Positions 2,478-49,786 of a stretch of DNA of 64,000 bases are shown here, one piece after another; position 1 is the first letter of the stretch; the number at the start of each line of letters is the position of its first letter. The notes under the pieces are model-generated. The model was not told the DNA's origin and searched no databases. It saw only the letters and a program-made list of their open reading frames with translations. Position numbers and translations under genes: made by a program. The DNA comes from a virus. Lineage: Duplodnaviria; Caudoviricetes. The stretch spans positions 1 through 64,000 of the IMG/VR virus record IMGVR_UViG_3300036982_000927. One strand, 5' to 3'.

Positions 2478-3750
2478 ACGAGTTCACCACCCCTTCAGCC
2501 CCTCGAAACTGCAATTTCTCGAAGCGTGCCCCTGCTATGAGAGCCGGAGCAGCACCAACGAGCGCGCCATCGCCGGAACGCTTGCGCATGGCGTCACCGA
2601 AACCCACGAAGACGACTACCGGTTGAGCGATGATGACGCCGCCGCCGCCGCCGAGTGCATGGACTTTTACGAACGCGAAGCGAACATCGTGCGTGAAGCG
2701 CGGGAACGGGCGATCATTGAATCCGCGCACAGGGCTTTTGGAGACCATGAGCCAACACAGGACGAATGGGACGCGACTTTTGCGGCTCACGCCCTAACCG
2801 CTCCGCCAGTCATTGAGTTGACGGAGACTTACCTCCCCGTGGATGATTGTTGGCTCACGCTGCCCGACGGCAAGAAGTTTGAAGGCACCACCGCCGGCTA
2901 CGTGGACCGGGCGATCATTGATCACACCGGACTGCGTGCGATTATGTTCGACTGGAAGTTTGGCGCCTGGCCGGTTGAGGGCGCCGACAACAATCTGCAA
3001 GGCATCGCCTACAGCCTGGGCCTTTTCCGGCTTTACCCGACGCTGCAAGAAATCAAGTTCTACTTCAAGCAGCCCGCCCTCAACTCGATTTCTTCCGCCA
3101 TGTTCACCCGGGCGCAGGTGTCCATGCTCTACTGCCGGGTGCAGTGCGTCGTGGCCCGGGCGGCGGAAGCTCGAAATTCCAAGACGTTCAATGACGCGAA
3201 CCCGATGGTTCCTGTTTGTAACTTTTGCTCGAACATCGGGCGCTGTCCGAAGGTCATGGCGATTGCATGCAACATCGCGCACAAATTTTCTCCGCTGCAA
3301 GTTCCGGAAAACATCACCCCGACCTTCGCCGACAAACCCGAGAATACTGCCGTTGGTCTGAACCTCTCCGCCGTGATGAAGGTTTGGGCCGAGGCTTACC
3401 GGGAGTGTGTTACCGCACGGGTGATCCGCCGTGAAGCAGTTGTGCCTCCTGGGTTCACCCTGGCTACCCGGGCGCCGCGCGAAGTGGCCGATTCGGCCAA
3501 GGCGCACGCGGTTTGCTTGCACTTTATGACGGAGGCCGAATACAACGCGCTGTGCGAATTGCCCGGCTTCGGCGCGCTGGAAAAGGTTATTTCATCGAAC
3601 GCCCCGCGCGGCCAGAAGACCGCCAAAATTGACGAGTTCAAAAAAGCGCTTGCTGATTCTGGCGCTGTCGTCGTTGGGCAATCTTACGCTTTCTTGCGGG
3701 CCGCGCCTACCGCTCACAAGGAAAAAACCATCGAAGGCGACACTGAATAA
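2449..3750 (+). CDS. PD-(D/E)XK exonuclease, DUF2800/Cas4-like
   Basis: N-terminal HHPFSPSK...CP, GTLAH, GYVD, DWKFG, Q...Y, and C-terminal CNFC...CP metal cluster. Confidence 0.8.
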   Translation: MTKNETPNAERVHHPFSPSKLQFLEACPCYESRSSTNERAIAGTLAHGVTETHEDDYRLSDDDAAAAAECMDFYEREANIVREARERAIIESAHRAFGDHEPTQDEWDATFAAHALTAPPVIELTETYLPVDDCWLTLPDGKKFEGTTAGYVDRAIIDHTGLRAIMFDWKFGAWPVEGADNNLQGIAYSLGLFRLYPTLQEIKFYFKQPALNSISSAMFTRAQVSMLYCRVQCVVARAAEARNSKTFNDANPMVPVCNFCSNIGRCPKVMAIACNIAHKFSPLQVPENITPTFADKPENTAVGLNLSAVMKVWAEAYRECVTARVIRREAVVPPGFTLATRAPREVADSAKAHAVCLHFMTEAEYNALCELPGFGALEKVISSNAPRGQKTAKIDEFKKALADSGAVVVGQSYAFLRAAPTAHKEKTIEGDTE

Positions 3751-18712: not shown

Positions 18713-21700
18713 CTACTTCATCGGGCGCGGTTTGACAAGGTCCAAAAAGTCCATTTCTTCTTGAGCGGCCTTTCCGGCTTTCTTCTCGACCTTCCGGGTT
18801 TCCTTGGCGGCCTTCTGCCCGTGCTGGTATTTCTGTTCGAGTTGTGGCATCCGATCCATTTCCTTCCGGTAGTCCCCCAGGTCAAGCCGGCCCCAGCCCT
18901 CCTTCGCCCAATTCATCTTCTCGGCGAACCACGCGGCGCCTTGCAAGTCATCGGCCTTCATATCCATTTTTTTTGCGGCAGCCTCGAAAACTTTCTGCGC
19001 AAAAGCAAAATCCACGTCTCGCACGCCACCTTGGTTCTTGGGAAGAATCCGCCAATGGTCTTCAAAGCCTTCATAACCCATCCGACGCATCATTCGATCC
19101 GCCCAGAGGTCAATTGTGGCCCCGTGCGAAATGCCCAGCAGGTTTTCGACGAAATTCCGAGTCTTCGGCCCGGCGTTCTGATCAAGCCAACGACGGGTGA
19201 ACACTTGCAGCAACGCATCCGAGTGTTGCCCATACAGTTTCTCGTTCAGTTGTCTTGGCTTGAGCTTGTAGCGGGTAACCCACTCGGCCAGGAAGGTAGC
19301 GGACGACGGGTTTTGCACCCGGGCGGTTCTTGGGTCAAGCTTGCCGGCTTTGCGTTGTGTTTCTAGCCAGTCGGACCACGATCCGTCAACCACCTTCGCA
19401 AATCCTTCGTCATACTTCTTGATGATCTTGTCGAAGCGTCCGTCCTGCCAGGAGCGGAGGGCCTCATAGGCGTATTGAAAATTCTGTTGAGGGTCCGTCT
19501 GCGGCGAGGTTGCCGCGAGTAACTCCGCGAACTCCTGCGACCACTTGCCCAGGGCCTTTTTCAGCCGGGGAGCGAAACCGCTATACCACGTCGCGCCGTC
19601 TTTGAAGGCTTGCAAGTCCCGGAGGGGTTCGAGGTATTTCACCATCCGGTTGGCAAACAGTTCAACCGCCTTTTCTTCGGACCCGCCGGCCTGCTTGTAA
19701 AGCGGCGATTCGGTAATGTCGGACGTGATCACCTGCTCCTTGCGACGAACGGTCCCGTCTTCCCCGACCACACGCACCCGGCGAACTACCTTGGCTTCCG
19801 GAAAGTGCTGCTCCAATTCAGTGTTGGTCATCACCGCCAGTTTACGGGGCTCGTAAGGCTTGAAGGCGCCAACGCCTTCCATGACCTGCTGCTCAGCGAC
19901 CGCGCCGCGACCGTATTCCTTTTTGATTTCGTCAACGTCAACCGGCCTGCCCTCCGAAAGTAGGTCCAGGGTTTCCAGGGCCTCTTGCAACGCATCAATC
20001 CGAGTTTTGCCCGAGCCGCCGGTTTTCACTTCGCCATTTCCATTGGGGTCTTTGAGGGCTTTCTCCCAATCCCAAATCGAAATCTGGTCGTTGTCCTTGG
20101 CAAACGCCATCGTGTTTTTCCGGTAGTCCTTGGGAACGACCGCGTTCACGTCCACACTCACCATGTCTTTGCCGGTCTTGTCATCCTTGAAGGCAAAAAG
20201 TCCGGCGGCGACGTTGGGTTCGTTGAGCAACTCTCCCATCGCCCCCAGGGCCGAGCGAACCGCATCAATCGAAACGTCCTTCCGGGGAAGGTTCACGCTC
20301 ACTAGCGAAACCAAATCCACCTTCGGATTCTCGGGAGCGAAAAGGGTTCCGTCGGTGTTGAAAGTCTGTCCACCGGATTTGCCGGCGCGAATCTTGGCCA
20401 CTTCTTCATCGAAAACCGGATCGGAAAAAGGTTCATCTTTCTTGGACACTTGCGCCTGCATGCCCTCGGTGATGAACGGAAGATGCTGTAGTTTTTCGCC
20501 TGCCGTGTAGTCCAGCATCCGGACCCGGTCACTCTTGACTTCCTTAGTCGCGCTGTCGTTTAACAAACTGATTTCGATAAAGTCAATAGCATCCGCGTTT
20601 GCGTCCACAAAATCGGTGACGGAGTTCTTGAGGGTCTTCTTCCAATCCCGGTCCCGCGCTTCGACGGTGAGCACACCGCCGTTCTGCGAGTAATTGATCC
20701 GGGCGAATCCCTTCTTCAACGCGCCCTCGCGCACACCTGCCTCTTCGCTGCCGGCAAACTCCGGAACCCGAAGCCCATATTTCTCCGCCACGTCTTTGTT
20801 CTCAGACAGCCACTGATGGTGCCAGGCGCCGCCCAGTTGAACAGGGGTTCCGTTGGGAAGTATCCAAGCTTTCTTGAGCCCGGAGCGGTCAAACTTTTTG
20901 TCCATCACGAACGGATTGCCGACTACCGGGGCGCGTTTGGCCTTCGCCTTCCGAAACGCCTCGTCTTCCCGCCGTTTCCACTGCGCTTCGAGTTGCGCCA
21001 TCGTCTTGCCCGGCGGCTGGAACTGTTCTCCCTCGCCCCGAGTTTCTTCGGCCTTCTGAACTTGCGCCTGCACGCCTTCGCCTTCGCCCTCGCCCTCGCT
21101 AAGCAAAGGTTCTCCAAAAGCGGGTCTATTAGTCTTCCCGTTGTAAGGTTCTTTTCTTCCCGCGAAAGCTAACTCTTTAATTGTGGCTTTCTGGGCTTTG
21201 GTATAATCGGACGTAGCCCCGGGTGACACATAGAAGACCTTTGACAGAAGATCATCATTCGCACCCCTAGCAAAAGTGTTATCAACTGTGTGGGCTCCAA
21301 TTCCATATTCGGACGCGGCTATCCTAACAAGCTCTTCGTGCATCATCCATCGCGGTCCCTTAATCAATTTTCCGTCGGGGGCCACAAGAAAACTCACCGG
21401 AATTGGGTGCGCTCGCTGTTGATCCCATCGAGATTCCATCGCGGCCATTTTTTGTTTCTCGCTTAGCTTTTTCCAATCTTCATAAGAGTATTCTTCATCC
21501 GTTTTCGGAAATTTTTTTCGAGGCTGCCCTTGCACGCCCTCGCCCTGAGCGCCTTCAAGCGGGCCTCTGTAGTTCGGATCGTAGTGCTTCCGAATGAACT
21601 CTGCTGACCCACCGCCTTCCGCCGCTTCAATAGCTTCTCGGAAAAACTGGCCCTTAGCCGCCATCGGCATCGCGTCCTCAAGATTGCCGGCCTTGACCGC

Positions 21701-24700
21701 CGCCGAAAATTTGTCAGACCACTCTTGCCGGTATTGCTTCAACTCGGCCAGCCCTTCGGGCGTGGTCGTGGCCGCGCCAAGGTCATAGGCCGCGCCGGTG
21801 AGTCCACCGACATACTTGCCTTGGTATGTATCCATTTCGGCGCGCCACTCATCCGGCTTACCGGCCAGGTCGTTGTAGTCTTTTGCGGTCTGGAATTGTG
21901 CTTCGGGAAGAATCTCATTTTCAACCCCAACGAAGCCCGCCGAACGTTCGGCTCGCATTTTCCGAAGGTAACCTTTGGCCTCTTCCGCCGTGGTTGGTCC
22001 CGTTGCTGAACTTTCCAAATACGTCTTGCCTTTGCCGAACACCGTTTCGCGAATCGAAATAGGGTGCTCCGAAACTACGGTTCCGGTCAGTTTGGTAACG
22101 CCGTCTCCTTGCAACTGCGTTGCCATTTCCCGATAAAGGGCTTCGCCAAATCCTTGGTTTCGGTAGTTCGCGTTGACTAAAACCTCCGCAACATGCGCGA
22201 TTTCTGGGTTTAACCTGCCTTGACTGGTAGAGATTAACCCAACTTGATTTCCATCGGTGTCTTGAACTTTGATGCGGCGATTTCCGGGGCCGCCTTCCCC
22301 AACAAACCGGAAACCTTTTTGTTCCATCGCCTGACCCCTTTTGGTTTTGGCTCCCGCAGCGGCGCCCTCAATTGCTTCAGGACGTGCTTCATCAGGTTTG
22401 GCAATCCGTGGCCAGAGTTCCGTCATGTCGTCAATTGGCATCGCCGCGTCGGCTTCCCGGCCCACTTGAAACTGCAACGTTTCCGGCCTCTGATCCAGCA
22501 TCTTGCTGGCGAGCCCATACACGTCGCCCGCGAAGACGCGGTGGACCTCCGGGTTGGTGTGGAAGGATTTCTCCAGCACGTTCTCGTCGAAGTCTCCTTC
22601 ATTGGCCGTTGTGATCTTCTTCCCCAACTCGGCATCTTTGTAGAGGGCCAGGTTGTAGATGTTCGCGTGACTGATTATGTCCTTGTTGCGCTTCAGAAAA
22701 TCGAGAGTGCGCCCATAGGTTGCCGCCGTCTCGCCGGGCAGTCCAATGATCACGTTTGGAATTAATGTAATGCCCGCCTCGCGCAGCCGTTCGACCGCCC
22801 GGTCCATGAGGGACGTTGTCGCTGGCTTGTGCATCGCGTGAAGAATCGGATCGTTGTAAGATTCAATCCCAAGTTCCACAAACTGAATGCCGGACTTCTT
22901 CAACCACTCCGGCGAGAAGCGCAACATTTGGCTGGCCGTCGTCTGAACAATGAACCCCTTGAAGTCTGGGTTAATCGCGGTGATGCGGTCCTTGATCTCA
23001 GCGAGTGACTCATAGTTGCTCGCCTGGCCGAATGTCTTATCGTTTAGGTAAACCAACTTCGCGCCGAGCCTGCCGATTTCGTCGGCCTGCTGTTCGACTA
23101 CCTTAGCGGGGGTCACGTCCAGCGTCTTAGGAACCGTGCAGAAAGCGCATTTGTGTTTGCAGCCCTGGCTCATGGTGAGCCGGGGGATCACGTCGGAGCC
23201 TTGGAAGTGCCGGTAGTCCACGCCGGCCTCGTGAGCAACTCCGGCGCTCTTGGCCCAGTCTTCCATCGTGCCGTGCCAGGTCGCGTTTTTCAGGTCGTCG
23301 AAGGTTCCCTTTTCCACGTAGCCGCCAAGGTCGAACCTCTGCTCCGGATTGGCCGCGACCAAGTCGCGAATCAAACCCTTGTTCACGTCGAGAGCGGAAA
23401 AAGCCACGCGGTCATATCCGGCGTCCTTGATGAACTGCTTGGCGCTGGCCATATCCCGGACCACATACAGGTCCGCATTCTTCATAAAGCGCGAAGCGAA
23501 TCCGACCCATTGCGGAATTTCCCAGAAGTCGGCCAGCCTCGCGTAACCCGTGCGGGCGCCCGAGTAGAGCTTGTCGTAGTAGGTTGCGTCGCCGCCCTTC
23601 GGCACGTTCGCGTTGATCAAGTCGGAGGAAAGTTGCACCAGCAATGTGCGGCCCTTGTTATCCGGCTGCGCGTCGTTCGCCGCGTCCGCCGAGCGGCGGA
23701 CCCAACGATTTTCGTCTGGGCTTGCCCGCACCGCACGGTTATACGTCGGATGAGGAGCAGTGATGGCACCGCCCTGAATCTTGGTCCGATCCAACTCGGG
23801 CCGTTCGGCTTCCCGCGCCACCTGGGCCTGCCCACCAGTTTCCCGCAAACTACTACGGGCTTGCGCTCCTTCGGTCACTCCCGCCTCCTCTTCGAGAACG
23901 ACGGGAATGCTTTCTTTTCCGGCGATTCTATACGCAGAAAGGCGATGCAGCCCATCTTTTACTTTACCATCTTTAGAAATCGTAACGGGAGGCAACTCCT
24001 TCCCCCCTTGTATCGTCTTGACCATCGCATTAACCCGCGCTTCGTCTAGCGGAACCTTCCCCGCTTCAAATAGATCAATAATGGATTGTGGGTTGGCCGT
24101 ATTGACAGGCACTAATTCCTTTTCCGTTTGGATTTCCGATAACAGTTTGTATTTCTTTTTTGGTGCCTGGAACTGTCCCCGTAGTGACTGCATGAACGGA
24201 GCGCCCCCTTCGAGTAGCTCGCCTTCCGGAACCGCCGACACCCTGGCGACGCGCATCCCGGCATCCTCGGCCCGCCTCCATGCGCCGGCCATGTCTTCGG
24301 CGACAATCTCCCGGCGTTCCGTCAGTCCGCCCTTCGTCCCTTCGACGTTCCATTTGCGCGGTTGTCCTTGAATTTTGAACTCCCCCACGTGCTCGGTTCG
24401 CCCAACATCTCCCTCCGCCGCCGCCGCCGCGAGTTGCGCGTCCAACGTTTTGGATTCTCGCCTTTGAACCAAGGTTTGTTTTCCTTCCTCGATCACCTTC
24501 TGAACAACTTCTTTCTGGCCACGAACCCGACTAAGGTAGGCGTCAGCGACAATTCGCGCATCCCGGATGGTATCCGGGTTGTTGCGCTTGATGTATTCCC
24601 CGACGGCAATGGCCGTGTCATTCCAAATGTCCATCGCACGCTGATTCTTGTTGACGTAGGCTTCGTTGTAGAGCCACTCGCCGGCTTCATCCGGAGTCTT

Positions 24701-27700
24701 ACCTTCAAACTCTTTGAACCGACTCCTCCAGAGACCCGTCTTTGATTCCGCGAGCATTTCTTGGCTGAGCCGCTCTTCGGCATTGATGGTTCTTGTGGCA
24801 ACCTCTCTTTCGGCCTGGCCGAGGCCCTTGTAAAATTTTTCGAGTTCTCGCTCTTTGGTTCCAAGTCCGGTAGTCGTCCATTCCATGTTCTTGACAACCT
24901 CCTCCATGCGCTTCGTCATGCCCGCCGCGTCAGCTTCCGGGCCAACGACTCCCTTTTCATACATCACCCGGCGCTGATTGCGCATTTCGAGGAGACGAGC
25001 GGCACGATAGTATGGAACTAGCTCCGCGTCCTTCCGATACTTTTCGATAACCTGCGCTTCAGAATTATCGCCGTAATACTCCCGCATCTTCTTGTCGAAG
25101 GAGGGCTCTTTACGGAGTTGCTCGATGCGCTGGCGTCCATACTCCGCGCCCTCTTCGCCCTGAGCCCGGCTTAGCTCAACAAGGTTCTTATTAGGGGTGT
25201 CTGAATCAAGAATTCCGGCGGTCTCAACGTAGTCAGACCAAACTCCCTCCATGTATCTATTGAGCTTTTCAGTCGTGTCAAACCGTAAAGGGGGACTGAT
25301 GAAGTCCGGAATGGTAAACCTTCCGCTGTCATGCTCCGCCTTGATGATTGAAATAAGTTCGATCCATGAAGACATATCCGTCCCCGTGAGGGCGATGTCA
25401 CCGAGTTGCAAATACCCCTGCTTCTCTAAGCGATCGGGTCCAGTCACCTGTTCGCTTTTGGTCCGGAGAGCTTCGCTGACCCTGGGTCCGCCCTTTCTGG
25501 CCAACCAAAGACGGAACCTCTCCCAGAGATTAAGCATCATCGGCTTTTCATAGGCCGGTTGGAATTGAAACTTGCCCGTGTCCCTCGGCTGAAAACCGGC
25601 CTGAAGTGTCAACGTGTTTGCCCCAAAGCGTTCAAGTTCGGGGGCCACGGTCGCGTCGAGAATTTCGCGCGCATTGAGCCGCTGCTGAACTTCGATCAAC
25701 TTTGGCGCCGGAACTCCGGCGGAGGCGGCAATGGCGTCAACCTTCGCGCGGAAGGGGTTGACTTCCTGCACCGGCAGGCCGGCGACGCCCTGGCGCTCGG
25801 CGACTTTTCCCTCAAACGTGCGGGGAACTACCAAGGGGGTTACCCGACCTTCGTCTGGCGCCGTAGCTTCCGCCACTTGCTGGCCGGCGATGTTTAAGGG
25901 AAGCTGGCCTTGCCCCTGGCGCGCCTGGACAGTAGGCTTGCCTTCTACGCCTGGCAAACGGTTCGCGAAAAGGTAATTGACCACGTCCGCGCGTTCCTGC
26001 GGGAGCCCCGCAAGGCCACCTTTGCGTTCTGGCTGGGTGAAGCCAGCGGCTTTCGTTTCCGCCGGCACGACGATCTCGCGCCCACTGCCAGTTCCACCGG
26101 CAAGTTGGTTCTGCACGAACGTCCGAACATCGTTGGCAATATCAAAGTCGGCGGGAACGAGTTTGGCCGTCGCTCCCGGCATGGCCGCTTCAACCTTTGC
26201 AATCCAGTCCATCATTCGCGTGTGATTCGCGTTGAAGTTGTTCGGGCTCCAGCCGACATACTGCGGGCCGCTAGCCTCCGTGGTCACAACCTTGATGGGA
26301 AAAAAGTCTTTGGTCATGGCCTGCCGATCCGTCGGCAAGGCGCCGCGCGCGACCTCGATCTCGGCCCGGCGTTCTGGCCGCATGATGGACGGATCGCCGC
26401 CGGGCAGTCCCTTGGCCGACAAGTAATCCAGTCGGACGCCCTGGCCACTTTCAATCGCCCCATTGAGAGCGCGCATGGCCGCCGCGCGCTGCGAATCGGC
26501 GACTTCCGGGTGCCTGTCCGCCCAATCCTCAGCCTGCTGGGCAGGGGTAGCGGCTGGCGCTCTGGCACTGATCACCGGCTTCTCCCCGGCAGCCCGGGGA
26601 ACTACAACGGCGCCCGCTTCGCGGCCTTGCTCGACTGTGCGTTTAAACGTCTCAAAACTCAGCGGGGCACCCTGATACTCGGACACGCGGCCAAGCAGGG
26701 GCTCAGCGCCAATCGTCTGCATCATATTGGCGACTGCCCACGCAAGCTTGCCTACCAGGTCCGTGCGTTTGAGCGACGGCCCTAGGTTTTTCAAGGCGGT
26801 GTCAAAATTCTCGGCGGCCCTCTCGCGCGCCATGTATCGGTCCCCGGCTTCGTTCGCGATGCGCTCAGCTTCCGCCGGTTCGGCGACGATCTCCCGCCAA
26901 TTGCCTCCGCGCGTCCGCATCTCTTCACGGGTAGCCCCGATTTCGGCTTTTACCTCGGGGGCAATCGTTCCGTCCGCCTCCGTGTTCTCTTTGACCATCC
27001 GGTCAAAAGCATCCATTTCTCCCCAGCCAGAACTTTCAGCGAGAGTCGTCCTCCAATTGCTCACCAACGCGCGAAAAGTTTCCGGTGACAACGCCCCCGC
27101 CTCTACGGCTGGATGCAAATACTGGGCCGTGTAACGCTGACCAAGTTGTTCCCAATTATCCGCATAGGCCGCCTTGACCTGCTCGTCAACCGCGCGCATG
27201 GCGGGCTCACCCATCACCGCTTCGATCGCGTGCCGCATTTCGTGCGGTGCGGCGCCGATCTCAGTTGCGATGACTACAGGCCGCTCCACCCCCGCCGCGT
27301 CCTTGAAGTTGCCCTTGAAAAAGCCCGCTTGCTGAGCCGCTGTCGGATCGTTGAATCCGAGTTTTGCGAGTTCCGCCCCGAGTTGCTCCCGAGGGACAAA
27401 GAAAAACTCGGTTCCAATCTTGCTCGCCATCGCGCGAAGACCGTTTAGCCGGACCTGTTCCGCCGGAGCGAGTGCGGGGGCCGCCGCTTGCATCGCAGCT
27501 TCCAGCCCCTTGAATTTTCCGGTCAACGGAGGCGGCGGGACTTGCTCCCAGGCGCGGTTGTGGACGATCTGCCCACTGGTGATTGCCCGCGCGGTGTTGA
27601 AGGCCCCGTGGCCAAGCCCGAAAATTAAACCAAAGGCGCCGGCTTGTTGCGTTTCCGCCGGAGTTGTGGACGTGCCAGCGGCCAGGCCGATGTCGAAAGC

Positions 27701-28987
27701 GGCGCCGGTCGCGCCCGCAACGGCTACACGCGGGGCCGATCTCAAAACGTCCTCAATCGCCTGCGAAGCGGCTGAGCGGATGCCCTCCGCACCCAATTGG
27801 GCGCCAACCTTCTGCGCTTCGACTCCGCCCTTCTCAATAGCCTGGCCTATTTTGCGCAAAGTTCCCCCGGCAATGCGCCCGGCAGCCATTCCACCAACCG
27901 CCCCACCGACACCGCCAAGCGACGCCCCTTTGACGACGCTAGCTACCGTCGCGGCGGGCGGCCCAACTGTTTTGACTACCTTACCGGCAACTTCAACACC
28001 TTTCCCAAGTGCCGGAAGCACTTCTCTAGCGCCACTTACCAACTCCGCCCCAACCTTTTCGGCGGCTCCCCCGACTACTTTGGGAATCACTGACGGAATT
28101 GCCGCTTGTGCGCCGTGAATCACCTTTGGAAAAAGCATCCAAGTAAGCGGGTCAACTGCACCATACTCGCCAACGACCTTGGGACGCACGGGTTTGCCGG
28201 CGGCCTCAAGTTCTTTCTGAGTCTCCGAGCTAATAGCGTTCAAAAGACCGCCTTTGCCCTTGGAAGCGTCCTCAACCTGGCGCTGCATGGAAATCCGCTC
28301 CCACAATCGGCGGTCCTGGCCCTCGGGAGTGTCTTCCCCAGGCTCTTTAACCCCGACCGCGCGCCCGATCTTGCCGGCAACCGTCACGGCGCCCTTCTCT
28401 AAACCGAAAATCGAGGACTCCATGCCGGACGCAACTTCAATGTGCTTCCGTTTTTCCTCAAGAATGGCCTCGGCGAGCCGTCGATTCGCCTTTTCATCGC
28501 CGAAAAGAGCCAGGGCTGCATCAATAGTGCCCCGGGCAAACCGTTCCGGCACCCCCTGGATGCGCTTCTCGCCATAGATGGCCTGTGACGGACCTTCGGG
28601 AAGTCCCGTGGTCGCTTCGGCGGCCACTCGGAGCGCGCCTTTGCTAACGTCTTTAAGCGTGCGACCTATGGCGGGCAGCAACGCGGGCATATCCTCCCAT
28701 TTCCAACCACGCTTTTCGAGAATCGCGTTGGCCTTGGCGGCCTTTTCGCGAGTGTCGGCATCACCCCACAAATCTTCGCGCTGACCAAACTCGGTTGCGG
28801 GGTCAAACGGAGGCGCGTCGCCCCCCTTTGTCTTGATGCTGAATTCCGCCAACTCCTCAGCGGTAAGGTCTTTGAAGGGGTTGCCCTGAGGCTGCTCCGG
28901 AACCGCCGGTTGGGCGGGACTTGCGGCGAGCTTTTGAGTAAACTCCGCCTGCTCTTCGGGCGTCAGTAAAGTATTGATGTCGGCCAT
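18713..28987 (-). CDS. Giant (~3424 aa) polyvalent internal virion/ejection protein with HExxH peptidase, ParB-like, cobalamin radical SAM, GNAT and HhH-like modules
   Basis: HEMRH ~27235; DGLHRL ~23945; CKHKCAFC ~23150; YRNQGFGEALY ~22150; LAATSPQ...GPKTRNF...TIDLW 19000-19520; follows the ejection-protein genes. Confidence 0.85.
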   Translation of the reverse strand: MADINTLLTPEEQAEFTQKLAASPAQPAVPEQPQGNPFKDLTAEELAEFSIKTKGGDAPPFDPATEFGQREDLWGDADTREKAAKANAILEKRGWKWEDMPALLPAIGRTLKDVSKGALRVAAEATTGLPEGPSQAIYGEKRIQGVPERFARGTIDAALALFGDEKANRRLAEAILEEKRKHIEVASGMESSIFGLEKGAVTVAGKIGRAVGVKEPGEDTPEGQDRRLWERISMQRQVEDASKGKGGLLNAISSETQKELEAAGKPVRPKVVGEYGAVDPLTWMLFPKVIHGAQAAIPSVIPKVVGGAAEKVGAELVSGAREVLPALGKGVEVAGKVVKTVGPPAATVASVVKGASLGGVGGAVGGMAAGRIAGGTLRKIGQAIEKGGVEAQKVGAQLGAEGIRSAASQAIEDVLRSAPRVAVAGATGAAFDIGLAAGTSTTPAETQQAGAFGLIFGLGHGAFNTARAITSGQIVHNRAWEQVPPPPLTGKFKGLEAAMQAAAPALAPAEQVRLNGLRAMASKIGTEFFFVPREQLGAELAKLGFNDPTAAQQAGFFKGNFKDAAGVERPVVIATEIGAAPHEMRHAIEAVMGEPAMRAVDEQVKAAYADNWEQLGQRYTAQYLHPAVEAGALSPETFRALVSNWRTTLAESSGWGEMDAFDRMVKENTEADGTIAPEVKAEIGATREEMRTRGGNWREIVAEPAEAERIANEAGDRYMARERAAENFDTALKNLGPSLKRTDLVGKLAWAVANMMQTIGAEPLLGRVSEYQGAPLSFETFKRTVEQGREAGAVVVPRAAGEKPVISARAPAATPAQQAEDWADRHPEVADSQRAAAMRALNGAIESGQGVRLDYLSAKGLPGGDPSIMRPERRAEIEVARGALPTDRQAMTKDFFPIKVVTTEASGPQYVGWSPNNFNANHTRMMDWIAKVEAAMPGATAKLVPADFDIANDVRTFVQNQLAGGTGSGREIVVPAETKAAGFTQPERKGGLAGLPQERADVVNYLFANRLPGVEGKPTVQARQGQGQLPLNIAGQQVAEATAPDEGRVTPLVVPRTFEGKVAERQGVAGLPVQEVNPFRAKVDAIAASAGVPAPKLIEVQQRLNAREILDATVAPELERFGANTLTLQAGFQPRDTGKFQFQPAYEKPMMLNLWERFRLWLARKGGPRVSEALRTKSEQVTGPDRLEKQGYLQLGDIALTGTDMSSWIELISIIKAEHDSGRFTIPDFISPPLRFDTTEKLNRYMEGVWSDYVETAGILDSDTPNKNLVELSRAQGEEGAEYGRQRIEQLRKEPSFDKKMREYYGDNSEAQVIEKYRKDAELVPYYRAARLLEMRNQRRVMYEKGVVGPEADAAGMTKRMEEVVKNMEWTTTGLGTKERELEKFYKGLGQAEREVATRTINAEERLSQEMLAESKTGLWRSRFKEFEGKTPDEAGEWLYNEAYVNKNQRAMDIWNDTAIAVGEYIKRNNPDTIRDARIVADAYLSRVRGQKEVVQKVIEEGKQTLVQRRESKTLDAQLAAAAAEGDVGRTEHVGEFKIQGQPRKWNVEGTKGGLTERREIVAEDMAGAWRRAEDAGMRVARVSAVPEGELLEGGAPFMQSLRGQFQAPKKKYKLLSEIQTEKELVPVNTANPQSIIDLFEAGKVPLDEARVNAMVKTIQGGKELPPVTISKDGKVKDGLHRLSAYRIAGKESIPVVLEEEAGVTEGAQARSSLRETGGQAQVAREAERPELDRTKIQGGAITAPHPTYNRAVRASPDENRWVRRSADAANDAQPDNKGRTLLVQLSSDLINANVPKGGDATYYDKLYSGARTGYARLADFWEIPQWVGFASRFMKNADLYVVRDMASAKQFIKDAGYDRVAFSALDVNKGLIRDLVAANPEQRFDLGGYVEKGTFDDLKNATWHGTMEDWAKSAGVAHEAGVDYRHFQGSDVIPRLTMSQGCKHKCAFCTVPKTLDVTPAKVVEQQADEIGRLGAKLVYLNDKTFGQASNYESLAEIKDRITAINPDFKGFIVQTTASQMLRFSPEWLKKSGIQFVELGIESYNDPILHAMHKPATTSLMDRAVERLREAGITLIPNVIIGLPGETAATYGRTLDFLKRNKDIISHANIYNLALYKDAELGKKITTANEGDFDENVLEKSFHTNPEVHRVFAGDVYGLASKMLDQRPETLQFQVGREADAAMPIDDMTELWPRIAKPDEARPEAIEGAAAGAKTKRGQAMEQKGFRFVGEGGPGNRRIKVQDTDGNQVGLISTSQGRLNPEIAHVAEVLVNANYRNQGFGEALYREMATQLQGDGVTKLTGTVVSEHPISIRETVFGKGKTYLESSATGPTTAEEAKGYLRKMRAERSAGFVGVENEILPEAQFQTAKDYNDLAGKPDEWRAEMDTYQGKYVGGLTGAAYDLGAATTTPEGLAELKQYRQEWSDKFSAAVKAGNLEDAMPMAAKGQFFREAIEAAEGGGSAEFIRKHYDPNYRGPLEGAQGEGVQGQPRKKFPKTDEEYSYEDWKKLSEKQKMAAMESRWDQQRAHPIPVSFLVAPDGKLIKGPRWMMHEELVRIAASEYGIGAHTVDNTFARGANDDLLSKVFYVSPGATSDYTKAQKATIKELAFAGRKEPYNGKTNRPAFGEPLLSEGEGEGEGVQAQVQKAEETRGEGEQFQPPGKTMAQLEAQWKRREDEAFRKAKAKRAPVVGNPFVMDKKFDRSGLKKAWILPNGTPVQLGGAWHHQWLSENKDVAEKYGLRVPEFAGSEEAGVREGALKKGFARINYSQNGGVLTVEARDRDWKKTLKNSVTDFVDANADAIDFIEISLLNDSATKEVKSDRVRMLDYTAGEKLQHLPFITEGMQAQVSKKDEPFSDPVFDEEVAKIRAGKSGGQTFNTDGTLFAPENPKVDLVSLVSVNLPRKDVSIDAVRSALGAMGELLNEPNVAAGLFAFKDDKTGKDMVSVDVNAVVPKDYRKNTMAFAKDNDQISIWDWEKALKDPNGNGEVKTGGSGKTRIDALQEALETLDLLSEGRPVDVDEIKKEYGRGAVAEQQVMEGVGAFKPYEPRKLAVMTNTELEQHFPEAKVVRRVRVVGEDGTVRRKEQVITSDITESPLYKQAGGSEEKAVELFANRMVKYLEPLRDLQAFKDGATWYSGFAPRLKKALGKWSQEFAELLAATSPQTDPQQNFQYAYEALRSWQDGRFDKIIKKYDEGFAKVVDGSWSDWLETQRKAGKLDPRTARVQNPSSATFLAEWVTRYKLKPRQLNEKLYGQHSDALLQVFTRRWLDQNAGPKTRNFVENLLGISHGATIDLWADRMMRRMGYEGFEDHWRILPKNQGGVRDVDFAFAQKVFEAAAKKMDMKADDLQGAAWFAEKMNWAKEGWGRLDLGDYRKEMDRMPQLEQKYQHGQKAAKETRKVEKKAGKAAQEEMDFLDLVKPRPMK

Positions 28988-29030
28988 ACGCAAAGCTAGT
29001 GCGGCTAGCCGGCCTTTCTGTCGAGATTGT

Positions 29031-30399: not shown

Positions 30400-31056
30400 C
30401 TATCCCCCAATCGGCTGCATCGAGCAACCCTTCGCCAAATTTTCAGCCGCCAGCAAGGGCTGAAGATTTGAGTAGTGAAAACAAAGCTTTTGCTGATCCA
30501 AATCGAGTAAATCGAAAGACGCTACCGGACGAATGTGGTCAATGTGCCACACTGATCCGGCATTCTCCCAAGACATTCCGCCTCTAAACATTCCCTCAAG
30601 ATGCGCCTTTAACTCGGGCAAAGAACATCCAACCAACTCCAGACTCTTACAATTCTTTTTCGTTCCCTGGAAGGTGAACGCGGTGTGTAACCTGCCCCGG
30701 AGTGTGTGTTGTAACCGATAAATCGGGTCCGACATTTTAACAACGTGGTATGCCTTGCGAGTAACGTTACGTCGAGGGCAGTTTGCCTTGCCATACTCTC
30801 GCCCGTATTTCCGCCAGCGGTCCCGCTGTTTTGCGTAACTTCTTTTTTTTGTCGCCCTATGCTTATCGGGGTTCTCCGCTTTGTCTTTACGAAGTTTTTC
30901 GTAAAGCCTCTCTCGATTGACTAGAAAATAACGGGCACTATAGAGCTTTGCGCACTCCTTGCATTGGTGTTCTCTGTAAGGAATCCCTTTGCGCCCCTTA
31001 TGAAGACGAAAACTCAACTCGTCCCACTCAACTCCGCATTTGGCGCAAACCGGCAT
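30400..31056 (-). mobile_element. HNH homing endonuclease 1
   Basis: N-terminal CAKC...CKEC; WHIDHIRP...CFHYSNLQPL...EN.AKG. Confidence 0.85.
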
Positions 31057-32974: not shown

Positions 32975-33649
32975 TTACTTCTCCTTACGCAGGTATAACG
33001 AACCCTTCTGCCGATTTTCAACCCTCAAAAGGGGCTGAAGGTTCGAGAAATGAAAACAGACCCGGACTTGGTTCGGATCACTGAGACCAAAACTGGCGCA
33101 CGGTCGAATGTGATCAACCTCCCAATGCGTTCCCCAATTTTCCCAAGTCATACCGTCCCGAAATTGATTCTCAAGATGCTTTACCAGTTCTTCGGAGGAA
33201 CACCCAAGAAGTTCTCGCGTCTTTGCGGGCTTCCCGTGACTATGCAAAGCGTGCCACATGCGCTTTCGCGCCGCCACCACCATTTGGTAGGCCGGATCAA
33301 ACTCATGTGCAGACCGAAAAGCTTGCATATTACGGCGGGCAACCGCGCGACCCTCGGGCGTCGCAATTCGGGCCAGAATTTTGTCCCGATTTTCCCAATA
33401 TGCATCTACTGCTTTCGCCGAAAGCTTCTCACAATTCTGCTGGTAATACTCGCGACGATACGCCGCATAGCCGTCCCCCATTTCCGACCGGCGGGCGGCT
33501 TCCTTACCCCGAAGCAACTCGCGATTCTCCGCCTTGTATTCTGCATCCCGGGCCTTTTCGCAAGCACGACACCAGCTTCGCGGGTGCCCCTTCCGAAGGC
33601 GGAACTCCGAAACGTCTTTTTCAACCTTGCATTTTGTGCAAATCTTCAT
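32975..33649 (-). mobile_element. HNH homing endonuclease 2 (paralog of HNH 1)
   Basis: CTKC...CRAC; WEVDHIRPCASF...CFHFSNLQPL...EN.QKG. Confidence 0.85.
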
Positions 33650-33654
33650 TCCAC

Positions 33655-33683
33655 ATTGTAGCACAAGCGATTGCATTACACAA
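33655..33683 (-). promoter_or_regulatory. Leaderless promoter of HNH 2
   Basis: TTGTGT-17-TACAAT with TG extension; ATG 5 nt downstream. Confidence 0.6.
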
Positions 33684-47208: not shown

Positions 47209-48117
47209 TTACTTCCGCCTCGTGTTACGAGGTCCATAAACACACGAGCCGATATGACCGCATACAAGCCCCATGTCCACAAAAGGTTGGTGCCCGGCAT
47301 CCTTGGCGCGAGTGCAAAACTGAACGTCCTCGCCCATGCCCAATGAAGAGTTGGCGTGAGCATCAGAAGAAGCCTTCTCCAGCATTTCTAAAGCCTTAAA
47401 AGCCTTTTCACCAGTCATCGGACCTTCGGAAAGCATCTTCCTTGCCCTGTCAATCCAATCCATTGCCGTATGCTCGCTGGTAGAAAACCACTGGCCACCC
47501 CGGCCCCCATTACGGGCCAGGCGAGGGAATTTCTTTTCGAGGTCGAGGTAAACAGAACGATGAACTAACATACAGCCCGTCCCGACCCACTTCGTTGGCT
47601 TGATCAAATTCATCGGCGCCTTGCGGGCAAACTCCGCCTCAGCGGGAATGTTGGCACCCTCGGCATACATAGGCCGCCCCAATTCATGCCGGCCAAAATA
47701 AAGAGCGCCCACCAAAGTCTTTCCATGCGAAAGCAACCGGTCGAGCGCATTCAGCCCAGCAAACTCTGGGGGTAGATTAAATCGCGTGTGCGCATTGAAC
47801 CACTTCGCGTCACCAAAGGGCACGATCATGTCGTCGTCAATCGTCAACATCCATTCCAAGTCGGTTCCGAGAAAAAGATTCGCGCAAGTGTTGCGAGTGT
47901 GGGCCACGAAGGCGTCCCCGTAGTTGAGCAACCGGCCACAACGCCGACGGTCGAAAAGTCCCATCACGGAAAACGCGGTAACCGGGTTGGTGTGTTTCTG
48001 CCACGGCATCGTGAGCATGACCTTCTTAGTCCCCACCGTGACAGTCTGAAAAACCGGAGAAACTACTCCAGGGCCTTCGTCCCGATCACTCTCCGACTCT
48101 AAAACTTCAATAATCAT
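47209..48117 (-). CDS. Glycosyltransferase family 2-like protein
   Basis: RNTCA...WMLTIDDDM, WVGTGCML, GEDVQFC..A..AG...FVD...CGHIG. Confidence 0.75.
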   Translation of the reverse strand: MIIEVLESESDRDEGPGVVSPVFQTVTVGTKKVMLTMPWQKHTNPVTAFSVMGLFDRRRCGRLLNYGDAFVAHTRNTCANLFLGTDLEWMLTIDDDMIVPFGDAKWFNAHTRFNLPPEFAGLNALDRLLSHGKTLVGALYFGRHELGRPMYAEGANIPAEAEFARKAPMNLIKPTKWVGTGCMLVHRSVYLDLEKKFPRLARNGGRGGQWFSTSEHTAMDWIDRARKMLSEGPMTGEKAFKALEMLEKASSDAHANSSLGMGEDVQFCTRAKDAGHQPFVDMGLVCGHIGSCVYGPRNTRRK

Positions 48118-49478
48118 TGAGCGTCGGCCCGTTGGCGTTCCGCAATAATCCGGTCGCGGATCGCGTCCAGAGAATCAGCAGCCCGCGCGCTGAAAATGTC
48201 CTTGCTCATTTTTAGTTCCGTCTTGGCGGGCGACGCCCCGGATTCTTCCAATCGTGTGATGGAAGCCCCCGTAAATTTTTCGAGTTTGACCCGGAGTTTT
48301 TCATTCTCTTGGGACAACGCCTTCTCTTTCGCCTTAAGAGCGTCGTGCCGGTCCTGCAAGTAAAAAAGTTGAGCCATACCGGCCAGCATGACCCCGCGCA
48401 TTTCCGGCGAGTCGTCCGCCAGAGCGTTCGTCAATTGCTGATTCATATCCGCGACAAACTTGTTGTGCCCCGCCACCGCCGCCTTGTCCGCATCCGTCGC
48501 CTTGGCGTCCGAAGTCTTCGTTTTCATCCAATCCAACTTAGCCAAAATCGAATCGAGTTCCCTCTTCGTCGCGGTGTTGTGGCCCGTGCGATTTTCTTCA
48601 AACTGTTTCTGACGTTCCGCAATATACCCGGACACGTTTTTCTTGGCCTCTTCTTGCGCCTGGGCCTTGTTGAACTTCTGAAGTTCAATGTCCGCCAGGC
48701 GGCCCTCGATCAACCGCTGCGCAGTTGGGTCTTGCATGACCTCAAACAGTTTGGCCATCTGCACGTTTTCCGGGCCGTTGTATTTCTTGATCTGCGTAAT
48801 CACGTCTTCCGTGATGTTCGGATTCTTACGCATCTGCGCGTAGATGAACTCATGTGACTGGCTGATAGTCGTGTCGAAACTCTTAAACTTCGGGTCTGCC
48901 TCAATGTCGAATTTGGCCCGAAACTCCCGGAGTTCTTTCAACTCCGCAAGTGTTTCCGCAGGCACTGGACTCTGAAGCTTGGCGTCACGATCCGCAATAT
49001 CCTTTTGCAACTGCTCGATGCGCTTATCGCGCTCCGAGATTTCCTGAGTCGCACGGGCCTTGATCTGCCCAAACGCTTCAGCGGATTTCGGACGGGCTCC
49101 CGGAGGAAGTTGCACGTCACGAAAAATGTCGTCGGGCTTGACCCCAGTATCACCCTTGGCAGCGTCATCGGGTTTCGCGGCGGCGTCGGGTTTCACGGCG
49201 GCGTCTGGCTTCGGAACTACAACTGGTTTCGCCTTCCCTTCGTCCGGCTTAGGCGTTCCGTCTCCTGTGGTGTCCTCCTCGGCCTTCTTTTCGGCGGCGT
49301 CACGCAACTTGTCAAGCGCACTGGCTCCACTGTCAAAAAGCGGATCATCGTGGCCCGCCGTGCTGTGCCCGGAAATATCCTGGCTCTCCAACTTGGCCTT
49401 TACTTCGGCGTTGTTGGCGGCTATGTCCTGCGGAGCTACGTCGCCGCTTTCGGGTTTCTTGTTCAAATCATCTGCCAT
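48114..49478 (-). CDS. Putative capsid scaffolding protein
   Basis: Acidic low-complexity N-terminus, long coiled coils, lies between portal and capsid. Confidence 0.6.
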   Translation of the reverse strand: MADDLNKKPESGDVAPQDIAANNAEVKAKLESQDISGHSTAGHDDPLFDSGASALDKLRDAAEKKAEEDTTGDGTPKPDEGKAKPVVVPKPDAAVKPDAAAKPDDAAKGDTGVKPDDIFRDVQLPPGARPKSAEAFGQIKARATQEISERDKRIEQLQKDIADRDAKLQSPVPAETLAELKELREFRAKFDIEADPKFKSFDTTISQSHEFIYAQMRKNPNITEDVITQIKKYNGPENVQMAKLFEVMQDPTAQRLIEGRLADIELQKFNKAQAQEEAKKNVSGYIAERQKQFEENRTGHNTATKRELDSILAKLDWMKTKTSDAKATDADKAAVAGHNKFVADMNQQLTNALADDSPEMRGVMLAGMAQLFYLQDRHDALKAKEKALSQENEKLRVKLEKFTGASITRLEESGASPAKTELKMSKDIFSARAADSLDAIRDRIIAERQRADAQ

Positions 49479-49480
49479 AA

Positions 49481-49786
49481 TCAGGGTGTGGGTTTTGTGG
49501 GGTTGTCGTTCCAAGCCGAATCATCGTCCAACGGAGGGTAAGACGCCGGCTGTGATTTGATCTCTGGTGCGGGAAAAGCCAGGAGCAAAAGCGCCTGGGC
49601 CGCCTCGGACCAGCCACGAGACTCCCCGCAGCGGATCAAAATTTCGTTGGTGGGTCCGCCCGCGAGCAGCGGGGGCGTGGCTTCAAGCCATTTTTCGACC
49701 AAACGCAATCCCGCACGAGTTTTTAAAAACGTGCGAAACGCGATTGTATCTTCAGAATCCCACTCAGGGATGCCTTTATCATTCAT
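49481..49786 (-). CDS. Hypothetical protein
   Basis: 101 aa immediately downstream of the portal gene. Confidence 0.65.
   Translation of the reverse strand: MNDKGIPEWDSEDTIAFRTFLKTRAGLRLVEKWLEATPPLLAGGPTNEILIRCGESRGWSEAAQALLLLAFPAPEIKSQPASYPPLDDDSAWNDNPTKPTP

Follow-up and report, generated by a model that had tools for sequence, protein, structure and literature searches.

Relation to described systems

Polyvalent proteins of phages and conjugative elements combine enzyme domains with zincin domains in one chain, and the zincin domains have been proposed to process that chain, although no site was defined (Iyer, Burroughs, Anand, de Souza and Aravind 2017; PMC5512222). A search of the literature for a defined processing site in polyvalent proteins found none, and because no recognition site was defined, the processing idea was not testable until now. 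Here we describe a giant gene (18713-28987, minus strand) in a stretch of 64,000 nucleotides, positions 1 to 64,000 of the IMG/VR virus record IMGVR_UViG_3300036982_000927 (Duplodnaviria; Caudoviricetes), which is referred to below as the window. The protein consists of a conserved N-terminal block (the N-block) that includes an HExxH domain resembling zincins, followed by a variable string of modules, and a short glutamine-centred motif is found between these modules. Our analyses show that this motif is a real delimiter at the module junctions and is conserved at the protein level.

The giant protein resembles polyvalent proteins in that one phage chain contains unrelated enzyme modules (radical SAM, GNAT and DUF7178) together with a zincin-like HExxH domain. 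In addition, ART-PolyVal and histidine phosphatase (His_Phos_1) domains are present in its homologues, with ART-PolyVal restricted to P0004 and P0006. In the protein itself (P0001), none of the PolyVal, LPD or MPTase-PolyVal Pfam domains was found (E ≤ 0.1 for the whole protein and E ≤ 1 for segments). Unlike polyvalent proteins, its HExxH domain gave no Pfam match, including to the polyvalent-protein peptidase model, and its N-block is absent from GenBank phages; in contrast to the 2017 study, a junction motif is defined here across a family.

Shuffled effector modules in one chain, a candidate built-in protease and unstructured linkers are also shared with the MARTX toxins, although processing is only predicted here (PMC6315884). 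The MARTX proteins are secreted by bacteria and act as toxins on eukaryotic cells, and in the linkers between their effectors they are cut after Leu by an inositol-phosphate-activated cysteine protease (PMC6315884); the giant phage protein is not homologous to them. Structurally, the HExxH domain came closest to zincins of the anthrax lethal factor (LF) and Pro-Pro endopeptidase (PPEP) type (MEROPS family M34; Z 4.7-5.7 over 146-170 amino acids (aa)), and the PPEPs cleave their substrates at repeated motifs that contain proline (PMC11460543, PMC10413326). However, there is no sequence similarity to LF or the PPEPs, the Z values are below the noise guide, the motif is Q-F-x-P rather than P-P, and HExxH is separated from the candidate Glu ligand by a helical segment of ~100 aa.

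As in the giant phage protein, a short, semi-conserved and lineage-specific motif marks every junction in the picornavirus 3C and potyvirus NIa systems, in African swine fever virus pp220/pp62 and in phiKZ-type head processing, and the glutamine-centred site described here recalls those of 3C and NIa (e.g., ..FQ↓G/S). These systems use Cys/Ser proteases or a separate prohead protease, and NIa-type sites, unlike the motif here, do not tolerate Pro after Gln. The prohead-protease systems (T4 gp21 or phiKZ gp175 type) differ further from this one, in which no such protease was detectable with Pfam and the head proteins lack the site motif.

A recurrent motif at the module junctions of the giant protein

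The open reading frame (ORF) extends over 18713-28993 on the minus strand when counted from a TTG codon (3426 aa, P0001). The true start is the ATG at 28987, as the preliminary description had it, which gives 3424 aa and fits the homologue consensus 'M-x6-LTPE'. Because the alignment with homologues sets the start at this ATG, P0001 residue numbers, which are counted from TTG 28993 and used throughout this text, equal the true numbers plus 2. Pfam domains were assigned to radical SAM (1941-2100), GNAT (2246-2312) and DUF7178 (3273-3357).

Ten copies of Q[FAG]Q, a QGQGQ and an HEMRH had been reported previously, and the sequence check found all of them in place. Q[FAG]Q occurs 12 times in P0001 versus 1.96 expected, and none of 2000 shuffles reached 12; the enrichment at domain boundaries that had been anticipated for the homologous proteins was recovered for the core Q-F-x-P. 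In an unbiased 3-mer scan of P0001, QFQ ranked first (5 versus 0.27 expected), a result that alone fails multiple testing. At least five BLAST-block termini were found within 25 aa of eight of the ten copies (random mean 4.3, P = 0.019), while the remaining two flank modules without homologues in the set. The ends and starts of the blocks shared with homologues cluster at 1143, 1722, 2174, 2366, 2488, 2642/2657 and 2846. Consistent with the earlier account, the motif is situated between the modules of P0001, whereas radical SAM, GNAT and the others contain no copy, and the modules unique to this phage are bracketed by it as well. The copies use different codons (CAG/CAA and TTC/TTT), also as previously observed; conservation is thus at the protein level, and a DNA repeat or recombination scar is ruled out.

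The earlier treatment of QAQ and QGQ as variants of the same motif proved to be right, as 'LPFITEGM-QAQV' in this protein aligns with 'LPFITEGEVRG-QFQP' after the WHH module. Two sites were added, AGFQP at 25586-25594 and a degenerate AFKP at 19856-19867. The label 'ParB-like' for aa 1610-1721 has only a DGLHR motif behind it and no Pfam support at E ≤ 1. QGQGQ (aa 1026) was considered as a junction and rejected: it is a loop within N-block domain 2 (model residues 571-590; predicted local distance difference test (pLDDT) ~63-66), and homologue coverage is unbroken across it. The features of the giant gene are as follows, with the AlphaFold2 (AF2) models and VIA-align fold comparisons described below.

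18713-28987, minus: giant gene, 3424 aa from ATG 28987 (homologue consensus)
25595-28987, minus: conserved N-block, aa 3-1133 (~150 cluster representatives; end always at ~aa 1137)
26609-27613, minus: zincin-like domain, aa 461-795 (AF2 pLDDT 88, predicted template modelling score (pTM) 0.81; VIA-align matches)
27230-27244, minus: HEMRH, aa 584-588, candidate zinc site (conservation; helix after two strands in the model)
26801-26824, minus: ERAAENFD, aa 724-731, with candidate third metal ligand E724 or E728 (at least 90% conservation; model helix 266-297)
25595-26560, minus: N-block domain 2, aa 812-1133, partly a WYL/Sm-like barrel (VIA-align)
25904-25918, minus: QGQGQ, aa 1026-1030, intradomain loop in N-block domain 2
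25586-25594, minus: FQP of the conserved 'TLTLxAGFQP' closing the N-block, first junction site (homologues; pLDDT collapse exactly here)
25559-25567, minus: QFQ, aa 1143 (145 block termini within 25 aa)
24371-25558, minus: module aa 1146-1541 (no homologue among ~190 family proteins)
24362-24370, minus: QGQ, aa 1542 (motif scan)
24167-24175, minus: QFQ, aa 1607 (motif scan)
23831-24166, minus: module aa 1610-1721 with DGLHR motif
23822-23830, minus: QAQ, aa 1722 (motif scan; block termini)
22475-23821, minus: radical SAM module, aa 1725-2173 (Pfam PF04055, E 3e-14; 21 homologous blocks)
22466-22474, minus: QFQ, aa 2174 (orthologous site kept after the radical SAM module in homologues)
21899-22465, minus: GNAT module, aa 2177-2365 (Pfam PF00583, E 4.8e-5)
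21890-21898, minus: QFQ, aa 2366 (motif scan; block termini)
21533-21889, minus: module aa 2369-2487, widespread, sole cargo module of the minimal orthologues (homologous blocks)
21524-21532, minus: QGQ, aa 2488 (motif scan; block termini)
21062-21070, minus: QAQ, aa 2642 (motif scan)
21017-21025, minus: QFQ, aa 2657 (motif scan)
20459-21016, minus: 'WHH' signature module, aa 2660-2845, 'LPDG-H' in the preliminary description (81 homologous blocks)
20450-20458, minus: QAQ, aa 2846 (alignment; the orthologous site of homologues is GQFQP)
19856-19867, minus: AFKP, aa 3043-3046, degenerate copy at the start of the C-terminal block (homologous blocks)
18716-19855, minus: conserved C-terminal block including DUF7178 (Pfam PF23802; phrog_3842)

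A search for a free-standing WHH module gave one 104-aa fragment only.

Conservation and variation of the motif among homologues

A word-based search gave 13 giant homologues. When the first 1146 residues were used as the query of an exhaustive phmmer search, 158 cluster representatives were obtained, most of them 2000-3400 aa long. In all phmmer homologues the N-block ends at query position ~1137. The N-block homologues are all metagenomic and none comes from an isolate; GenBank phages yielded no member and only one weak radical SAM match.

When 3-mers were pooled over 126 proteins, FQP (295 versus 34.9 expected) and QFQ (162 versus 25.9) were the only strongly enriched ones present several times per protein, and the motif logo reads A-Q-F-Q-P-K followed by acidic residues. 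The FQP-poor proteins carry QFSP, QFAP, QFKP, QFMP, QFEP or QFLP instead; since it is residue x that is swapped, the core of the motif is Q-F-x-P. This core was found 317 times in 116 proteins versus 32.9 expected, whereas controls with permuted residue order were at 0.4-1.8 times expectation; in P0096 alone, QFQP occurs nine times (0.02 expected). The copies are spaced at a median of 165 aa (5th percentile, 74), and their flanks are hydrophilic and charged. Residue x is much more uniform within a protein than between proteins, with identical pairs at a frequency of 0.448 versus 0.199 after shuffling, a value that none of 2000 shuffles reached.

Family-wide, BLAST-block termini are enriched 2.3-fold within 20 aa of motif copies, and a share of 5% or more of a protein's block termini falls within that distance for 66% of the motif sites but only 25% of random sites. 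At the junction following the radical SAM module, the homologues have QFQP, QFAP, KFQAP, QMQP or QAQP. The number of strict copies correlates only weakly with protein length (rho 0.21) because many copies are variants.

Two other signals were rejected as junction motifs. The QFGP in 'hakegyQFGPrgefna' is part of a conserved module and not a linker. 'TPE' is enriched ~6-fold (523 versus 85) but is spread throughout the proteins and followed by E/Q-A-A; this 3-mer resembles a general N-capping box of helices more than a signal. In P0001 it occurs at aa 11, 222 and 2411.

Association of the motif with the N-terminal block

The motif follows the N-block that carries HExxH, not the cargo. Via the cargo half (aa 1725-3426), 49 giant proteins were gathered, and proteins were classed with a hidden Markov model of aa 441-1134. 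The 124 N-block proteins hold 340 copies of QF.P versus 35.5 expected. Among the 23 proteins lacking the N-block, those with copies resemble 5'-truncated fragments, one of which starts within the N-block and the others of which are on contigs of 7.7-10 kb. By comparison, the 18 genuinely different giants that have radical SAM or DUF7178 cargo without the N-block contain one QF.P copy in total. No repeated linker motif was found in the other radical SAM-bearing giants (P0013/14 and P0171-P0188).

At the same module junctions, sister families have F-S-P (P0167, P0168 and P0169) or F-M-P (P0174, P0175 and P0164), both without the leading Gln, and their HExxH blocks are divergent (LHEIFHP, GHETGHL). 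Q[FAG]Q and QF.P are at chance level or absent in the remaining real ORFs, both of this genome and of loci L001-L004, and the capsid, scaffold, portal and other neighbouring proteins lack the motif both here and in three syntenic phages.

The cargo region ranges from one to more than ten modules across relatives. The smallest versions are two syntenic minimal orthologues of 1213 and 1273 aa (L003:8001-11642 and L004:8001-11822), which comprise the N-block, AGFQP and one module of ~120 aa equal to aa 2369-2487, with no DUF7178 tail.

Structure of the N-terminal block

Both histidines, H584 and H588, are invariant in an alignment of 57 sequences, and conservation reaches at least 90% for E585 and for E724, E728 and D731 in 'RE[LR]AAENFD'. 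HExxH is located at residues 520-750 in nearly every homologue, and six homologues have HExxGH in its place, an interchange that is documented within the M49 DPP III zinc peptidases (PMC5805324, PMC9820243). The AF2 models of aa 441-1160 (pLDDT 85.7) and aa 441-830 (pLDDT 88, pTM 0.81) are confident and show two domains, aa 461-795 and aa 812-1134. HExxH lies in model helix 142-154, after strands 118-124 and 130-136, and the candidate Glu ligands E724 and E728 are on the long model helix 266-297, ~140 aa beyond it. The pLDDT drops below 50 at aa 1135 and beyond, which coincides exactly with the start of the first motif copies.

When the isolated HExxH domain was compared with VIA-align, six of the top seven matches were lethal factor-type folds: the Certhrax N-domain (Z 5.7; root-mean-square deviation (rmsd) 4.7 over 170 aa), two entries of the LF N-terminal domain (Z 5.0 and 4.7), PPEP-3 (Z 4.9; rmsd 4.1 over 159 aa), PPEP-2 (Z 4.8) and the catalytic domain of anthrax LF (Z 4.7; rmsd 4.5 over 154 aa). 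Collagenases, Wss1 and PprI ranked below them. The earlier assignment of HEMRH to a zincin is consistent with its near-invariance, its helical setting and the weak matches to LF/PPEP zincin folds; no Pfam or PDB sequence match was obtained.

For N-block domain 2, the best VIA-align match was PafBC (6sj9_B, Z 9.5), followed by BrxR and CapW (Z 8.2-8.8), with ~90 aa aligned; BrxR, CapW and DriD all fall within Z 7-9. These WYL/Sm-like barrels are ligand- or nucleic-acid-sensing domains of defence regulators. Upstream of the zincin-like domain, aa 300-470 (~28400-27600) form a long Gly/Ala/Val-rich, weakly amphipathic stretch, which recalls the membrane-inserting or glycine-zipper segments of phage ejection proteins.

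Possible processing of the giant protein

A short lineage-specific motif in disordered linkers, whatever the modules separated, is a polyprotein pattern, and the zincin-like domain is the only conserved candidate reader of the motif in the same chain. The reading that we favour, at a probability of roughly 0.4, is a tentative one: the linkers may be sites of proteolytic processing, with the zincin-like domain of the same chain as the protease. The N-block of ~1130 aa would then head a phage 'polyvalent' polyprotein. Behind it is a variable string that comprises a module without assignment, the DGLHR module, radical SAM, GNAT, three further modules and the DUF7178 tail. These are separated by short hydrophilic linkers with Q-Phi-x-P, relaxed here to Q-[F/A/G]-Q-[P/V/A/T], and the zincin-like domain, if active as a peptidase, would recognise and cut them. 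The scissile bond could be the one between Gln and Phe, as for thermolysin- or BoNT/B-type zincins, or the one between x and Pro, as for the PPEPs. The protein may be packaged and ejected, cutting may occur in the capsid or after entry, and cutting at all sites would release up to ~eleven pieces. A polyprotein of this kind had been suggested in the preliminary description; the family-wide junction motif, its link to the N-block and HExxH agree with the suggestion, while the assignment of the domain as the protease depends on weak fold matches. We are slightly more hesitant about the general form of this reading, in which a large group of uncultured phages of ~65-75 kb would carry polyprotein virion cargo and an LF/PPEP-like zincin would read a co-evolving Q-Phi-x-P code (QFQP, QFSP, QFAP, QFKP, FMP, FSP and others).

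Several observations weigh against self-processing. P0008 and P0098 have HD for HE yet keep motif copies, and the minimal orthologues of 1213-1273 aa keep HExxH with just one site and one module, so the HExxH domain may have another main job. In the AF2 models the first motif copies are disordered and not docked in the HExxH cleft. The VIA-align matches (Z 4.7-5.7) are under the tool's noise level of 7-8, and a zincin fold is consequently suggestive rather than established; Foldseek against the PDB gave nothing at E ≤ 0.001 with either model, and the N-block matched no Pfam peptidase family (E ≤ 1) and nothing in the PDB by phmmer or profile search. Gly or Ala at the Phe position with Pro directly after the site matches no single textbook zincin subsite preference. 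Moreover, strict QF.P is missing from 19 of the 124 N-block proteins, the co-occurrence of motif and N-block is only partly independent as the family was gathered via the N-block, the family statistics are not phylogenetically independent, and both the homogeneity within a protein and the lineage-specific variants could stem from ancestry.

Some of these points would also fit a linker motif that is never cut. In that case the protein would act as one chain, and the repeated motif would serve for docking to the capsid interior, portal or ejection channel, for binding a host factor or as a hinge between modules. Docking motifs, too, typically have a lone Phe and Pro within a charged disordered linker, and the AF2 models leave the motif undocked from the HExxH cleft. 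The N4 virion RNA polymerase and ArdC/TraC1 both have zincin domains and yet travel unprocessed (PMC5512222). However, there is a single copy per junction at domain-sized spacing, which suits a delimiter better, as one copy would be enough for targeting; furthermore, unrelated and newly acquired modules are all bracketed, the other virion genes all lack the motif and no partner is identifiable. We regard an uncleaved motif as somewhat less likely than self-processing.

The sites could also be cut by a different protease, from phage maturation, another part of the giant protein or the host, with the HExxH domain acting elsewhere, e.g., on a host or cell-wall target. The weak zincin assignment, the HD variants that retain the motif and the minimal orthologues with a single site would all be accommodated, and the phiKZ-type prohead proteases, for which a short consensus is the cleavage site in many internal head proteins, are a precedent; a divergent prohead protease could hide in a genome in which nearly all structural genes lack a family match. 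Against this, the complete genome has no Pfam S78, S77, S49 or ClpP match, and a separate coiled-coil scaffold-like protein (48114-49514) suggests protease-free assembly. In addition, the capsid, scaffold, portal and neighbouring proteins here and in syntenic phages lack the motif, the motif goes with the N-block and not the cargo, and its variants differ among related phages, which is harder to fit to a conserved host protease. We consider a separate protease less likely than either of the two preceding readings. Least probable by far is that the linker is a passive relic, copied along in module duplication or recombination and without present function. The modules are clearly shuffled between proteins and linker duplication could give the homogeneity within a protein, but the codons vary with no DNA identity running into the flanks, just 4-5 residues are retained while the flanks vary freely, the motif is kept at orthologous junctions across proteins that are ~30-50% identical, and modules of independent origin are bracketed.

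With a concrete family-wide site and candidate catalytic residues, the 2017 proposal of zincin processing becomes testable, and natural controls are available in the HD variants, the minimal orthologues and the giants without both N-block and motif. If self-processing is true, it would account for the delivery of ~ten enzymes by one gene as infection begins, a radical SAM enzyme and an acetyltransferase among them. The free shuffling of cargo would be explained as well, since a module placed between two delimiters would be released automatically and phages could swap effector modules freely. Polyvalent proteins would have, in this motif, their first defined cleavage code, and the system would represent a phage modular effector delivery analogous to MARTX, as well as a source of a sequence-specific protease with lineage-specific variants.

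Genome setting of the giant gene

The window is contained in a virus record of 74.1 kb, which CheckV rates as 100% complete. Its plus strand encodes a DNA polymerase A, a helicase, exonucleases and a sigma factor, and these genes are followed by a long minus-strand block in which hardly any structural gene matches a PHROG or Pfam family. The giant gene is at the end of this late block, a position that is syntenic in related contigs and is the one observation pointing to possible packaging in the virion. No prohead protease was found by Pfam matches to S78, S77, S49 or ClpP anywhere in the genome, which is weak negative evidence because the structural genes of this phage are so divergent. Between the presumed portal and capsid genes, 48114-49514 (minus) encodes a highly charged protein of 466 aa, one stretch of which is rich in Pro, Ala and Lys and the C-terminal half of which is coiled-coil; it is scaffold-like, has no protease signature and is encoded apart from the giant gene. 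PDB sequence and profile searches with it were empty.

The first 30 bases of the record (genome G000, 1-30) are repeated from 73923 onward, ~178 bp before its end, which points to an assembly with circular permutation or terminal redundancy, although IMG/VR gives it as linear. Inside the late/structural block, just upstream of the giant gene, are two endonuclease VII/HNH-like genes on the minus strand (30400-31056 and 32975-33676; phrog_1035, E 5e-11 and 2e-18), which may be homing endonucleases. The late genes of a related phage contig include an inserted IS605 OrfB/TnpB (Cas12f-like) gene (L004:3261-4493).

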